From: Promethearchaeota archaeon
Lineage (GTDB): Archaea > Asgardarchaeota > Lokiarchaeia > Sigyniarchaeales > SOKP01
Length of the DNA: 31,867 nt
Reading direction: 5' to 3'
Assembly: GCA_011364925.1 (NCBI GenBank)
Contig: RDOA01000044.1
Span: 1-31,867 of the forward strand
Each line of letters starts with the position of its first letter. Positions within the stretch are counted from its first letter, which is position 1. The notes below the pieces were generated by a model, which was not told the origin of the DNA, made no database searches, and worked only from the letters and a program-made list of their open reading frames with translations. Positions 19,631-26,382 of the stretch are shown piece after piece. A program made the position numbers and the translations under genes.

Positions 19631-20914
19631 ATGGCAAAAAGTGAATACTACATCGGCGAAGCATTACTTGGAGCCGAGGAAAATTTAGCTCACATAGATT
19701 TGATTATTGGTTCTAAAGATGGCCCGGTTGGGGTATCTTTTGCAAACGCTCTCAGTTCACCTTCGATGGGACATGGAGGTCTTCTAGCGTGTATCAGACC
19801 AAATCTCCTTACAAAACCGGTCAGTCTTGTTATTCCTAAAGTTACTGTCTCAAAGATGGAAGAAGCAAACAAAATTTTTGGACCCGCTCAAGCTGCCGTT
19901 GCTAAGGCTATTGCCGATGCAGTAGAAGAAAATCTAATACCAATGAATAAACTTGACGAATGGGTACTTATTGTAAGCGTCTTTATTCACCCTGCTGCAA
20001 AAGACTATCGGAAAATCTATCAATATAACTATAGCGCTACTAAGCTGGCGATTCAAAGAGCTTTGAAACAATACCCTCCAATTGAGAAAATTTTCTACGA
20101 TAAAGATCGAGCAAAGCATCCAGTTGCTGGAATGAAAGTACCAAGATTATGGAGACCTCCATATATTCAAATAGCTTTGGATCATCCAGATTTAGAACAC
20201 CATATTAAAGTGGTTCAGCAATTACCGAAGAGCGACAGAATTATCTTAGAGATCGGAACACCATTTCTTAAAAAATATGGAATGGAAGCGATAAAAAAAA
20301 TACGAGAGCTTGTTCCTCAAAAATTTATCGTTGCAGATTTAAAAACCCTGGATGTTGGGAAGTTAGAAGTAGACTTCGCCTTTGATGCAACAGCTGATGC
20401 AGCTGTTGCAAGCGGATTAGCTGCAGCTTCATCCATTGATAAATTCCTTTTAGAAGCAAGTCGTATGGGAATTTATGGTTATGTTGATACCATGGAAGTA
20501 GACGATCCCGTCGCAAAATTAAGTAAGCTAAAACAGATACCCGATGTCGTCATTTTACATCGGGCTATTGATGTAGAACAATCTGCTGGAGCTGAAGCTC
20601 CAGATGCGGCTCAAAAAGCAAGATGGGCAGCTATACCTAAGATTAAGGAAATGTATAAAGGTCAAAAGCTAGCTTCTGGAAGAGATCGCGTTCTCGTTGC
20701 CGTAGCAGGAGGTATAGATCCAAGCACTGCCAATTATGCATTAGAGATGGGAGCAGACATTTTAATTGTAGGTAGGTTTGTGACATCATCTAAAGACATT
20801 GAAAATTCAATGCGAAGACTCCTTAACATCATTCCAGGTTATTCAGATATTGACCTAAAAAGAATTCACACCGAGGATGACGATGCTTCTGTAAAGAAGC
20901 CTAGATGGGATTAA
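19631..20914 (+). CDS. fae-hps: Bifunctional formaldehyde-activating enzyme / 3-hexulose-6-phosphate synthase
   Basis: Fae: IGEAL.G, AHIDLIIG, FGPAQAAVAKA, VFIHP, NY.ATKLAI; Hps: LWRPPYIQIALD, LEIGTP, ADLKTLDVG, LHRAID, VAVAGGI, ILIVGR. Confidence 0.95.
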   Translation: MAKSEYYIGEALLGAEENLAHIDLIIGSKDGPVGVSFANALSSPSMGHGGLLACIRPNLLTKPVSLVIPKVTVSKMEEANKIFGPAQAAVAKAIADAVEENLIPMNKLDEWVLIVSVFIHPAAKDYRKIYQYNYSATKLAIQRALKQYPPIEKIFYDKDRAKHPVAGMKVPRLWRPPYIQIALDHPDLEHHIKVVQQLPKSDRIILEIGTPFLKKYGMEAIKKIRELVPQKFIVADLKTLDVGKLEVDFAFDATADAAVASGLAAASSIDKFLLEASRMGIYGYVDTMEVDDPVAKLSKLKQIPDVVILHRAIDVEQSAGAEAPDAAQKARWAAIPKIKEMYKGQKLASGRDRVLVAVAGGIDPSTANYALEMGADILIVGRFVTSSKDIENSMRRLLNIIPGYSDIDLKRIHTEDDDASVKKPRWD

Positions 20915-21760: not shown

Positions 21761-24016
21761 TTACTTAATTGGACGACTATTAGCTTGAAAGATTGGTCCT
21801 ATAAACTGACTATAAAGAATACTGAAAGCAGATTGATTTGATATGACGCTAATCATCTCACTTTCTTTATCTGTCGCCGGGCCTATGATAACCTCTTCCG
21901 CGTCTCGTGTGAGTGCGAAGAATTCACCTGCACCGCTAAGTTGTCTGAACTGGATGTTTCCAAGTCCCATCATTTTGCGAATTATATCACCATATTGACT
22001 CATTTCAAAACGAGATGTAAGCATAAATCGCACAGCTTTCTTCTGATAAGCGTATTCACTGATTACTTGTAAAATTTCGGGAATTACATAAGGCATAACG
22101 ATAATAATTGAAGATTTAACCCTATAAATCGCATCTTTTATAGCTGCTATTAATGCATCTCGACCAACTACTTGCCATGTAGTAATGTTCTCAATTTCTG
22201 GTATAGAACTCGATGCAATGTGGATATCTCCTAATTTACTTTCGTTCTTTTCAGCAAACTCGGTAGCATCGTCAATTGAATTCATAAAATGTAGTGTAAA
22301 ATCCGCAATAGCGTCTTTAATATTTTGAGTGGTATCTCGAGTTGTCGTAGAAAGACTATTTTGTAACGTTTTCGCGTTATTTTCGTATTTTGTTTTATGA
22401 TCGATTAACATCTCACTTAAGTTCCTATCTAGATCTGCTGATTCATCGCCCCATAAATTAATTTCGGCAGTAATATTATCTGAAGCGTCTCGTTTACCTC
22501 CAGTAAATTTATCGTCGAGATCTCTTATCCAATCCTCCTTAATGCGTTTAACATCAGTGTCGAACGTACTGTAATTTCTCAAAGATTCCTCTTTGTGCCT
22601 ATTGATGGCATCGTCGTATTGTCTGTGGTGAGTTTTAAGCGAGTTTTCTAAAGAGTCTTTCAATTTTACTGTCGTATCTGAACAATCTTTTACACCATTT
22701 TGTAAAGTATTGTCAACTTCACCAGCCATATCCGATGCTAATGTTTCTAATTGAACATTGATTGTTTCTTGAGCTTTATGATCTAAATCTGTAGTTTCGG
22801 ATACTACATTGTCATTTTCAGTGGTCATAATCTGGGTAACGTCTGATTTTAAGCTATCTGTTGTTTCTCTGGTGTTCTTAATATAATCATCACTAGTGGT
22901 TGTAAAATCGTCTTTCATTGGTTCAGTGAATTTTAATATGTTTTGAATAGTTGTCTCGTGCCTTGCTTTGTATTTTTTCTTCTTCCCCATCCAGAAAAAG
23001 CCTTTTTTAGCCATATCCTCTGAAAAATCAGTGAATCTATTTGCATGCTCCAATAAGTTGTCGATTAATGTTAATGTCATACTTTTAAAATCGTTGGATT
23101 GAGTTGTTAACACTCTGTGTCTTTCGTCGACTGTAGATTTCAAGTTCGTTTGAAGTGTATCGGTGGTATTTTTAAGGTGGTTCAAGTGTTCTTTTAACAA
23201 GTGTGAAATTCTCTCTTTTAGATCGATAACGATTTTATCCATGCGTTCTAGATATTTTTCGAGAATTTGCTCCAATCTTGGTTTAAGGTCATTAGCGATG
23301 GTTTGATGTCTATCAACGTGATTATCTAAGTTACTTTTTAATTCTTTTTCTAAATCGTCTACTCTTTTTGTAAAATCTGCTAACAGATTTGCAATTAAAC
23401 CAGTCAAGCCTTCTTTAGTTCTATCTACCATCGATTCATTTTCTTTTACTCTGCCATCGCTGATATTTTTGATATCAGAATTTAGAGTATCCATAATAGA
23501 ATGTAGATTCTCTTCCAAAGACTTTGAAGTGTCTGTGAATCGATTTCTAGCGCTATTAATTCTATCTCTTTTATCATTATTCTTAGTATCTGAATCGCTG
23601 AAAAAAGAGGTAAGTTGATCACTAACAGCAGTTTCTACCTCGTTTATGCTTTTGTCTTGAATAGCTTCTAACTTTTCAAAACGGCTTGATTGATCCGCCA
23701 GGATGGAGTCCTTAATTTTGGCAATCTCGTCTCTAAAGACTTTAGATTCTCCAATATATAACTCAAAAAATGGTTCTAACGGAATGAATCGATCTACAAT
23801 CCCCGTTACCTTTTTGAGAAAGCCAGTTTCGACTAACCAATCAGTAATCTCTAGAACAGATTCATACGATAACTCTGGATGTTCTTCAGCTAAGCTGAGG
23901 TAAACTTCAGATGATGTCGCCCTTGGAACTCGAAGATAAACAAGGTATACATTGATCTGATCTTCTGTGAAACCATATCTCGTGAAAATTTCCTTCGTAA
24001 ATTCTTTTAAGCTCAT
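21761..24016 (-). CDS. TrmB-like protein: N-terminal wHTH, about 520-aa coiled coil, C-terminal PLD-like (TrmB effector) domain
   Basis: YGFTEDQINVYLVYL...TSSEV...L.ETGFL.....RFIPLEP is a TrmB-type HTH; TWQVVGRDAL...IYRVKSSIIIVMP...TRDAEEVIIGP matches the TrmB PLD-fold domain without HKD; middle region helical with only two prolines. Confidence 0.8.
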   Translation of the reverse strand: MSLKEFTKEIFTRYGFTEDQINVYLVYLRVPRATSSEVYLSLAEEHPELSYESVLEITDWLVETGFLKKVTGIVDRFIPLEPFFELYIGESKVFRDEIAKIKDSILADQSSRFEKLEAIQDKSINEVETAVSDQLTSFFSDSDTKNNDKRDRINSARNRFTDTSKSLEENLHSIMDTLNSDIKNISDGRVKENESMVDRTKEGLTGLIANLLADFTKRVDDLEKELKSNLDNHVDRHQTIANDLKPRLEQILEKYLERMDKIVIDLKERISHLLKEHLNHLKNTTDTLQTNLKSTVDERHRVLTTQSNDFKSMTLTLIDNLLEHANRFTDFSEDMAKKGFFWMGKKKKYKARHETTIQNILKFTEPMKDDFTTTSDDYIKNTRETTDSLKSDVTQIMTTENDNVVSETTDLDHKAQETINVQLETLASDMAGEVDNTLQNGVKDCSDTTVKLKDSLENSLKTHHRQYDDAINRHKEESLRNYSTFDTDVKRIKEDWIRDLDDKFTGGKRDASDNITAEINLWGDESADLDRNLSEMLIDHKTKYENNAKTLQNSLSTTTRDTTQNIKDAIADFTLHFMNSIDDATEFAEKNESKLGDIHIASSSIPEIENITTWQVVGRDALIAAIKDAIYRVKSSIIIVMPYVIPEILQVISEYAYQKKAVRFMLTSRFEMSQYGDIIRKMMGLGNIQFRQLSGAGEFFALTRDAEEVIIGPATDKESEMISVISNQSAFSILYSQFIGPIFQANSRPIK

Positions 24017-24290
24017 AAGCTTTTCTCCATTTCTAAAATTAAAATTTGTTGTAATTCACATTAAAATAAATTTAATCTGAATTTCTTATTAAGATTTTTA
24101 TAATATTTTAAAGTTATAATTATATCTTCAAAATTATTATATTAAAACTTAAGGTTACATACATCTCATATTTTGAGTTTTTCTTTCTCCCTCAAAAAAA
24201 GAAATGGAGATAATATCTAAGACAACAATGTATAAAAATTAGCAATTTCTTAGAGTTTAGTTAATTAGATATTTCTAAATTTATCAATCG

Positions 24291-24351: not shown

Positions 24352-25050
24352 GTGAAAAAAACCATGAAAAAAGTAAGTAAAATTCTATTAGGCACTTTTT
24401 TCTTGATGCTTCTATTCTCGACGATTACATCGTTTAATGTTGTAGCGATTACTGATCCCGATGAAGTCATTGATGTTCCAGGTGACACAAATCAAGCACA
24501 AGTACAAGCGAACGTTGCAACGATGTTTCGATTTAGACAAAGAACTCAACTAAGGATACAAGCGAATGTCAATTTGAATCTTAATCTTGAATGTGATGCT
24601 TTAAGAATCGGGGATAAAGATTTTGTCCTTGAAATTGAAGGAAATGGTGACCTTCAAATGAACATGACCTGCACTCAAGAACAAGAACAATTGGGATTAA
24701 TGCTGGGAAATACATATCGGATAAGGAATCAAAACCAATACCAATATCAGGAAGGATTTGTCATTGATATCGAGTGCAATGGAACATTTACACAAGCAAG
24801 AATCAGAATAAGAGCAACCAATGAAAATCGATTAGGTCAATTTGCTTATCATGATGAAGCAACTGGAAATTGGGTGAATGTTCCTACAACTGTGGATGAT
24901 GGTTACTTAACAGCAGATGTATCACATTTTTCAACATGGACAATTCTCTTACCTGATTATACTCCATTAATCGTAGGATTCAGTATCGGTGGCGGCGTTG
25001 CTGCTTTAATAGTAATAGCATTGGTGTTTTACATAAAAAAGAGAAAATAG
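24352..25050 (+). CDS. Secreted, C-terminally membrane-anchored surface protein with juxtamembrane HFS motif
   Basis: Basic + hydrophobic signal peptide, beta-rich Q/N-rich ectodomain, AYHDEATGNW...LTADVSHFSTWTIL, TM helix, KKRK tail. Confidence 0.85.
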   Translation: MKKTMKKVSKILLGTFFLMLLFSTITSFNVVAITDPDEVIDVPGDTNQAQVQANVATMFRFRQRTQLRIQANVNLNLNLECDALRIGDKDFVLEIEGNGDLQMNMTCTQEQEQLGLMLGNTYRIRNQNQYQYQEGFVIDIECNGTFTQARIRIRATNENRLGQFAYHDEATGNWVNVPTTVDDGYLTADVSHFSTWTILLPDYTPLIVGFSIGGGVAALIVIALVFYIKKRK

Positions 25051-25072
25051 TGCAAAAATTAACATCTTTAAC

Positions 25073-25083
25073 TTTTTTTTTTT
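25073..25083 (+). terminator. Oligo-T terminator-like tract
   Basis: Run of 11 T, 22 nt after the stop of 24352..25050. Confidence 0.5.
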
Positions 25084-25128
25084 AATTTTTAAAAAAATAT
25101 TCTAAAGAACAAAAATTGGATTAATATA

Positions 25129-26382
25129 ATGGTTAAATTGAAAATTCCAAACAAAACAAAACTATATAGCATTTTTGTTTTATTATTCATATTCATTAAT
25201 TTTAACATTTTTATTTCTCAAGTTTTAGCTTATAGAACTGAGAATATCCCGGGATTTTCGACTCAGGATAATATTTATCCTAATGAGTCTGTAGAATACC
25301 TTTTTTATAACAATATAGTTTTCGATATTTCTACCGATACTTTTATCAATCTTAATATTCAATATGAGAATAACATCGAAAATCGTCAAATCTATTTCCA
25401 GATTAACAATAGTTTCCCAATTGCTCTTAATATTAGTTCCAAAACCTCTATGCAGAATTTTGGAATGCCTCAATCTCCTCAAGGACCAAGAAAAGACGAC
25501 AACCAATTTCGTTATGGATACAACTGTATACTTCAAATTAAGAGTAATACAACCATAGAACATTTGGTTATAAGTAGTGTTAAAAGGGCTTCATACGGAT
25601 TAAATCCTAATTTAAAGTATTCACTAGCGTTATACGAATCGTCGCAAGACTCATGGGAGCTTATTGATACGAGCGAGGTGTTAAATGAAACTACTTCAGA
25701 GTTTTCTTTAACTGGTACAGTTTCTAATTTACAAGCTGACACTGAATACTTTATTACATTTTACGAAGTTACTGAAATTTTTAACAATTGGATTTTAGTA
25801 ATTGTTTTAATTATAGGTGCGTTAGGTATTGCTTCTTTAGCTATCTTAATTTCAAAAAGTGATTATTTTCAATATCTTAAAACCAGGACGGTGCCAATTG
25901 AAAAAGGTGCGCATCGCTTAAGCTTGGAAGAAGTTTTAGAAAATGAAAACCGGAACAAAATTATTGATCTAATACTCAAGGAACCTGGAATCCATTTCAA
26001 CGAGTTGCTAAGAAAAACTGAATTAGCAGCGGGTAATCTCGTATGGCACCTCGATATATTAGAAACATACAAAGTTATAGGGAAAAAAAGAATAGGTAAC
26101 TTTATCGCCTACTTCCCGTACTACCAAAAAAATCCCATTTCAAATCTTGATCTTCAGTTAAGTAAGAGTAAATTAACACTAGAGATTTTAGAAATGATCG
26201 AAAAACAACCAGGTCTATGGAATAGCGTAATAACAAAACATTTTAAGGTAGATCATAAAACTATTCGATATCACATAGAAAAATTAAAGGATCTTAATCT
26301 TATTAATTTTAAAAGTGACGGTAGAAAGAAAAAGATTTTCCCTAATCTGGATTCAGAGTATTTTAATAATAAAAATTCTTAG
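25129..26382 (+). CDS. Membrane-spanning transcriptional regulator: ectodomain + TM + tandem winged-HTH (COG3398-like)
   Basis: N-terminal signal/TM, beta-rich ectodomain, TM WILVIVLIIGALGIASLAILI, then VLENENRNKIIDLILKEPGIHFNEL...LVWHLDILE and a second HTH ILEMIEKQPG...TIRYHIEKL. Confidence 0.88.
   Translation: MVKLKIPNKTKLYSIFVLLFIFINFNIFISQVLAYRTENIPGFSTQDNIYPNESVEYLFYNNIVFDISTDTFINLNIQYENNIENRQIYFQINNSFPIALNISSKTSMQNFGMPQSPQGPRKDDNQFRYGYNCILQIKSNTTIEHLVISSVKRASYGLNPNLKYSLALYESSQDSWELIDTSEVLNETTSEFSLTGTVSNLQADTEYFITFYEVTEIFNNWILVIVLIIGALGIASLAILISKSDYFQYLKTRTVPIEKGAHRLSLEEVLENENRNKIIDLILKEPGIHFNELLRKTELAAGNLVWHLDILETYKVIGKKRIGNFIAYFPYYQKNPISNLDLQLSKSKLTLEILEMIEKQPGLWNSVITKHFKVDHKTIRYHIEKLKDLNLINFKSDGRKKKIFPNLDSEYFNNKNS

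Follow-up and report, generated by a model that had tools for sequence, protein, structure and literature searches.

Architecture of the locus

What could a protein do that carries a TrmB-type winged helix at one end of its chain, a PLD-fold domain at the other and some 520 helical residues between them? The question is raised by one gene in the 31,867-nt stretch of Promethearchaeota archaeon DNA that we analysed (GCA_011364925.1, contig RDOA01000044.1; hereafter the window). A first-pass annotation, made from the letters alone, had read its product as a hairpin that is a candidate tether of DNA to the membrane. The reading frame and both terminal domains (winged helix, aa 1–82; PLD-like domain) proved real, with weak Pfam matches and clear structure matches, and a GGAG ribosome-binding site 8 nt upstream of the frame is conserved across about 35 orthologous loci. 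Pfam shows no ATPase family in the protein, whose head is made of the winged helix and the PLD fold, which bears out the proposal that it works with no ATPase. The features of the gene, in window coordinates, are as follows.

21761–24016 (−): rod gene (P0001), ORF of 751 aa, the single copy of its subfamily in this genome
24024–24028 (−): Shine-Dalgarno-like site, conserved in orthologous loci, backing the start at 24016
23771–24016 (−): TrmB-type winged-helix domain, aa 1–82 (AlphaFold elements, Pfam and VIA matches)
23828–23866 (−): recognition helix, aa 51–63, acidic, with Ser53 and Leu55 at the TrmB Arg and Tyr positions
23768–23803 (−): wing and junction, aa 72–83, conserved family-wide (G72 85%, R76 89%, P82 98%)
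23006–23770 (−): arm 1 (outgoing), unbroken 11-residue-repeat helix, aa 83–337, net acidic (periodicity and AlphaFold)
23510–23512 (−): main insertion site of arm 1, about aa 169, mirror of the site near aa 510
22967–23008 (−): hairpin tip, aa 337–350, aromatic cluster between lysines, net +7; modelled loop at 338–347; candidate membrane-targeting sequence
22208–22975 (−): arm 2 (returning), unbroken 11-residue-repeat helix, aa 348–603, net acidic (periodicity and AlphaFold)
22487–22489 (−): main insertion site of arm 2, about aa 510 (pairwise alignments)
21764–22189 (−): PLD-fold domain, aa 610–751, equivalent to the first TrmB effector subdomain and the TrmBL2 C-domain (structure comparison)

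The linker almost certainly folds back as an antiparallel hairpin

The linker had been described as helical with 11-residue periodicity, and the hydrophobic period of both arms indeed peaks at 3.66–3.68 (11/3), with a power of 8.3 and 4.3 for the two arms against a shuffle 95th percentile of 1.2–1.4 and almost nil at 3.5. The hydrophobic positions named as examples (F160/L171/I182 and L167/L178) are as given, and P246 and P366 are the only prolines in aa 83–605. Self-similarity of the linker appears at lags 22, 44 and 66, the hydrophobic face is broad (about 5 of each 11 positions) and the arms are acidic (net charge −12 and −23).

An AlphaFold model built on 115 sequences (mean pLDDT 80, pTM 0.38, tip pLDDT below 50) places two helices at residues 83–337 and 348–603 and a loop at 338–347, so that the turn falls on the aromatic and basic motif, as had been anticipated. 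The Thermotoga chemoreceptor hairpin 2ch7 aligns by VIA with rod residues 180–501 (308 of 309 residues, Z 12.5, rmsd 10.4). The two ends of the chain are rejoined as had been proposed: residues 5–750 match a 251-aa TrmB-family model as a single unit (169 aligned, rmsd 3.8). Mutual information peaks weakly on the antidiagonals i+j = 675–686 (best z 3.4), and a homodimer prediction for aa 130–555 scored 0.29 against a mark of 0.42, which counts neither for nor against pairing.

Arm lengths had been expected to vary symmetrically among Asgard homologues, and they do so in a comparison of orthologues that measures the arms from anchors flanking the tip and is independent of the AlphaFold model. 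Although the 231 orthologues span 751–1050 aa and 12 arm lengths from 236 to 386 residues, arm 2 minus arm 1 equals 7 in 226 of them. The difference is 8 or 9 in four others, and the one value of 18 arises from an anchor misplaced by 11 residues (tip span 47, not 58). An earlier version of the comparison gave r = 0.999. The observed matching was equalled in 0 of 100,000 permutations, a figure that overstates the case because the orthologues are kin and not independent. In 19 of 19 pairwise alignments the insertion totals are equal in both arms (11, 22, 33, 40, 44, 84 or 150 residues), and the paired insertions lie mostly at aa 169 and aa 510, which are mirror sites. A tree built from heads and short arm stubs puts the arm-length changes in several separate clades. 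Such repeated, exact compensation is hard to account for without antiparallel pairing. This symmetric evolution in 11-residue units is unusually clean and parallels the heptad classes of chemoreceptors.

The AlphaFold turn and the mirror-site indels thus agree on the antiparallel hairpin with a central exposed turn that had been postulated, and on the strength of model and alignments we regard folding back of the linker as almost assured. That there is no hairpin, the linker forming instead a parallel extended coil or a multi-helix bundle, is very improbable: the low pTM would leave room for it, and a domain swap in which arm 1 of one chain runs antiparallel to arm 2 of another would give an identical indel pattern, but the equal indels lie at mirror sites and the model has a single turn between two unbroken helices. 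Given the hairpin, the length scale foreseen for its arms (about 260 residues, or 39 nm) stands, with the exact figure corrected to about 255 residues each and about 38 nm. Model and sequence alike give good support to predicted rod lengths of about 38 nm for this protein and as much as about 60 nm for relatives.

The same periodicity admits an apolipoprotein-like reading, in which the hairpin stores the protein in soluble form and opens to spread its 11/22-residue amphipathic arms along a membrane or a lipid particle, with the tip as trigger. PF01442 and apolipoprotein A-I/A-IV supply the top sequence matches of the arms, and the lags of 22, 44 and 66 and the broad hydrophobic face would suit such a role. 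The PF01442 score, however, is 33 bits against a Pfam cut-off of 90 bits and reflects periodicity, and exact arm matching suggests a permanent register; we hold this reading to be quite improbable.

A basic and aromatic tip at the midpoint

The motif at aa 337–350 lies at nt 23008–22967, as first reported. Eleven of its 14 residues are aromatic or basic, a composition matched anywhere in only 14 of 20,000 linker shuffles, and its net charge of +7 stands against acidic arms. It is also the best interface-partitioning window anywhere in the rod. Its position near the midpoint is general among Lokiarchaeia-type orthologues, where the tip lies no more than 5 residues off (3–5) in 231 of 231. Among these orthologues 69 tip variants occur, falling into three sequence types with a net charge of +1 to +8 (mean +5). 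The types have Lys/Arg, one to four aromatics and glycines in common, but do not share a sequence; one resembles the membrane-targeting sequence of Escherichia coli MinD (sequence from PMC5471200). The helical moment of the tip is low here (0.21), indicating a loop and not a classical amphipathic helix, and reaches 0.37–0.57 in several relatives.

A tip that keeps its aromatic and basic chemistry while its sequence shifts would fit a membrane-targeting loop. Aromatic/basic patches can bind nucleic acids and proteins too; on what the sequences offer, lipid binding is nonetheless the most economical reading and the one towards which we incline.

In an alternative, chemoreceptor-like lattice, the tip would bind protein or nucleic acid and the rods would pack tip-to-tip, with partner geometry setting their length. 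The structural match to 2ch7 speaks for it, and chemoreceptor hairpins obey the same rule, changing symmetrically by heptads on either side of a conserved tip (PMC5907407). In the rod protein, however, the chemistry of the tip is kept but not its sequence, with three types within one class, and no partner gene travels with the rod gene. Protein-binding chemoreceptor tips, by comparison, keep their sequence. We consider a lattice of this kind unlikely.

Conservation of a central tip, a further expectation, holds in Lokiarchaeia-type orthologues but does not extend to the whole family, since several relatives of 1000–1800 aa are without such a tip. Near their midpoint, forms of about 755 aa in other classes show breaks that are basic and contain Phe and Gly/Pro; for distant relatives the midpoint is calculated from length and not from a folded model. 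In the tip-less long relatives, length has changed in single blocks (−22, −26, +679) that fall at the midpoint, the cheapest place for altering the length of a hairpin. In Lokiarchaeia, length never changes at the tip, and this avoidance of the midpoint suggests that their tip is functional.

The head is a TrmB chassis with a decayed recognition helix

In the 751-aa protein the Pfam matches of the winged helix are marginal (PF01978, E=0.014; PF11495, E=0.06), and PF01978 rises above cut-off in orthologues (E=7.7e-8 in a 1050-aa orthologue). VIA matches the winged helix to Fur/MecI-type winged helices, and the best Foldseek matches are TrmBL2 and TrmB (E ~1e-7; TrmBL2 first, at 1.3e-7). The PLD-fold domain superposes on the first TrmB effector subdomain (2f5t) with a VIA Z of 17.6 and an rmsd of 2.0 Å over 131 residues, and on TrmBL2 (5bpd) with a Z of 15.0. 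The protein terminates at the equivalent of TrmB residue 242 and has no second, sugar-binding subdomain, the part that supplies six of the sugar contacts in TrmB (PMC4158304). Like TrmBL2, it has nothing beyond the first effector subdomain, and the TrmB sugar site is therefore absent. At the positions of the PLD catalytic motif HxK(x)4D stand E698, F700 and D705, of which the Asp alone is invariant; since the catalytic His and Lys are missing, we rejected activity as a PLD or nuclease.

The head had been expected to bind DNA. In TrmB, Tyr50 is a DNA-contacting residue of the recognition helix, and the TrmB-family regulator MreA likewise lacks it (PMC4158304). The recognition-helix Tyr and the Arg before it are kept in 8 of 8 ordinary TrmB controls from related genomes, a small set. 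They are not among the top residues at these positions in 94 representatives of the rod family, which mostly carry Lys/Glu/Gln and Glu/Gln/Lys instead. The recognition helix here has a net charge of −5 and is the most variable part of the winged-helix domain (net −6), and the conservation of the family is concentrated in the wing and at the point where the wing joins the rod. What remains of the expectation is the wing, which is still basic (+2, like the controls) and keeps K68, K69 and R76.

TrmBL2 is a chromatin protein that binds DNA with little sequence preference (PMC4877046), forming filaments on it and stalling SMC (PMC4877046, PMC11840125). Given this loose binding, the basic wing and the small control set, we call DNA binding by the head doubtful and go no further, a judgement made from sequence, and lean towards a head whose main role is not DNA binding. 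Archaeal ESCRT systems use winged helices as protein-interaction modules (PMC10936438).

Two alternatives turn on this point. In the first, the original proposal, the head would, like TrmBL2, bind DNA with low sequence specificity and hold the chromosome about 40 nm off the membrane. The shared architecture with a chromatin protein, the retained K68/K69/R76 and the presence of a single copy in nearly every genome of the taxonomic family (62 of 68) favour such a tether; an acidic and highly variable recognition helix without conserved Arg and Tyr, a winged helix of net −6 and the absence of segregation or division genes nearby weigh against it, and we judge it rather unlikely. In the second, a membrane-sensing transcription regulator would be kept at the membrane by its tip until released to regulate genes. 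TrmB ancestry, a divergent promoter with a weak inverted repeat upstream and the precedent of MatP, in which DNA binding and lipid binding can alternate (PMC6538776), can be cited for it. But the sugar-binding subdomain is absent, the recognition helix has decayed, and residue-exact matching of arms over 250–400 residues is unneeded for such a role, so that a regulator of this type appears improbable.

Comparison with known systems

TrmBL2 of Thermococcales (5bpd, 5box, 5bpi, 5bqt) shares the winged helix, the helix and the PLD-fold domain, again with no sugar subdomain, but has a single dimerisation helix where the rod protein has its 520-residue hairpin and basic/aromatic tip. The rod protein is nearly three times as long, lacks the conserved recognition-helix Tyr and is 12–13% identical. 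The sugar sensor TrmB (3qph, 2f5t) shares the winged helix and the first effector subdomain, and differs in its second subdomain and in Tyr50, which has no equivalent here. As the recognition Tyr, the short helix and the sugar subdomain are all wanting, we do not file the rod protein as a TrmB regulator, though it is homologous; a regulator fold has apparently been reused as a structural element.

The chemoreceptor (MCP, 2ch7) likewise has a long antiparallel hairpin with symmetric arm indels and a protected tip. The rod differs in its 11-residue rather than 7-residue units (period 3.67, not 3.5), in having no transmembrane or sensor domain and in a tip whose chemistry suits lipid; Pfam gives no MCP family match in it, and homology is not indicated. 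SMC, Rad50 and MukB arms share an intramolecular antiparallel coiled coil with N- and C-terminal parts joined as a head. The rod protein has no ABC ATPase, hinge or CxxC zinc hook, its apex being a 10-residue loop without Cys, and no kleisin gene lies nearby. Structure matches to cohesin, MukB and JetC coils are generic coil matches; the apolipoprotein, SMC and MukB matches were all rejected as periodicity or generic coil. The likeness to SMC arms and chemoreceptor hairpins is one of geometry only.

Noc and RacA-DivIVA are nucleoid-membrane linkers. Such linkers, MatP among them, and MinD-type sequences compare with the rod protein in a DNA-binding fold plus a short hydrophobic/basic membrane element, for which the rod has a candidate in its tip, but none has a fold-back spacer of 40–60 nm, and DNA binding of the rod protein is doubtful.

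A membrane-tipped spacer as the preferred explanation

The rod family is real and structurally well supported, its fold-back is close to certain, and the tip probably grips the membrane. We propose that the short dimerisation helix of a TrmB/TrmBL2 ancestor lengthened into an antiparallel coiled coil of two arms, built of 11-residue repeats, which in the model would join the winged helix and the inactive PLD-fold domain as one head at one end. The aromatic/basic loop at the other end would insert in the anionic inner face of the membrane, from which the acidic shaft would stand off. The head may oligomerise through its PLD fold in the manner of TrmBL2, and the conserved wing may bind the head itself or partner proteins, not DNA as in TrmB. 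The outcome would be a fixed-length, ATP-independent spacer that sets how far from the membrane a cytoplasmic assembly lies. The decay of the recognition helix favours a membrane-anchored spacer over a DNA tether. To the whole chain, a passive, membrane-tipped spacer or scaffold on a TrmB/TrmBL2 chassis, we assign a probability of roughly 0.4.

The first-pass annotation knew of no characterised protein with this layout, and literature searches (family, locus tag, archaeal hendecad coils; mostly non-subscription papers) likewise gave no description; the decayed recognition helix and the contrast between tipped and tip-less relatives are new here. The family bears on how Asgard cells arrange the space between membrane and contents; a spatial separation of DNA from ribosomes is reported for these cells (PMC8776820). 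Because the protein is soluble, has a defined tip and occurs in natural lengths of about 38 to 60 nm, the spacer model can be tested directly. As a tentative and rather speculative extension, this family, so far Asgard-only and with several paralogues per genome, may represent transcription-factor-derived rods that serve as ATP-independent molecular rulers.

Gene neighbourhood

The first-pass annotation had also suggested a segregation factor, for which the neighbourhood gave no backing: no conserved segregation or division genes lie nearby in about 90 loci compared. The rod gene stands alone among metabolic genes, its neighbours in these loci all being metabolic or translation genes confined to particular lineages (Fae-HPS fusion, MFS transporter, IF2/S6e, radical SAM), which therefore give no operon clue for the rod subfamily.

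Window 19631–20914 (+): Fae-HPS fusion (formaldehyde-activating enzyme and hexulose-phosphate synthase family), downstream neighbour in 23 loci
Window 24352–26382 (+): two predicted membrane or secreted proteins of 232 and 417 aa, divergent, adjoining the rod gene in about 30 Lokiarchaeia loci
Window 24053–24083 (−): AT-rich imperfect inverted repeat, lying between promoter region and start codon

The 417-aa divergent neighbour has two C-terminal HTH domains. The two short half-sites of the inverted repeat recur in orthologous loci with variable spacing, and its folding is no stabler than that of shuffles (z −1.7 to 0.1).

Two paralogues of 669 and 726 aa each lie less than 40 nt behind a gene for 370–430 aa, a pairing present in most Lokiarchaeia loci checked and not in other classes.

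L202:2800–4071 (+) and L201:12–1040 (+) (G000 C38, C12): longin and winged-helix-like protein genes, upstream of TrmB-hairpin paralogues in Lokiarchaeia

This longin and winged-helix-like family occurs Asgard-wide (102 of 151 genomes). The partner protein of the paralogues is modelled confidently (pLDDT 89) as a longin domain followed by winged-helix-like elements, and the best matches of its N-domain are a Lokiarchaeal longin and FLCN, Lst4, C9orf72-SMCR8 and GATOR1 chains (Z 11–12); Foldseek alone gave no match to it below E 0.001. By association only, the wider family is thus tied to small-GTPase and membrane machinery, a linkage that concerns the paralogues and not the 751-aa rod gene. No orthologue of a STAND-like ATPase was found in this genome with a query derived from L055 and L059, where such a gene (L059:1787–3694, +; L055:7412–9292, −) lies directly upstream of family members of 1110–1123 aa.

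Distribution and family members

Matches to the rod protein occur in 198 of the phylum's 301 genomes (73 of the 90 good ones) and in 62 of the 68 genomes of the taxonomic family. Close relatives are labelled Promethearchaeota or Lokiarchaeota, among them the orthologue Lokiarch_28300 (69% identical). Distant members with a taxon name belong to Jordarchaeales, Baldrarchaeia, Heimdallarchaeota, Hodarchaeales, Helarchaeota and Sigynarchaeota, and no non-Asgard names appear among the matches listed in sequence searches for family members. Five proteins in this genome carry the PLD-like domain (751, 726, 669, 660 and about 300 aa), and those other than the rod protein are located as follows.

L201:1076–3082 (+), L202:4109–6286 (+) and G000 C27:18156–20135 (−): three paralogues with shorter helical inserts
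G000 C63:14452–15402 (−): protein of about 300 aa, coiled coil and the same PLD-like domain, no winged helix evident

The recognition helices of the three shorter-insert paralogues also lack the Arg and Tyr. Those at L201 and L202 are interrupted near the middle by a short basic/Gly break and also carry a Pro-rich linker and a C-terminal helical domain, and the 726-aa paralogue begins with a Cys-x-x-Cys module. The PLD-like domain occurs stand-alone and TPR-fused as well. Lengths in the family run from about 330 to 1794 aa. At the upper end, P0233 and P0234 (1794 and 1788 aa) have inserts of about 1550 residues, would form rods of more than 100 nm if folded back, and have gained about 680 residues at the midpoint relative to a 1122-aa relative.
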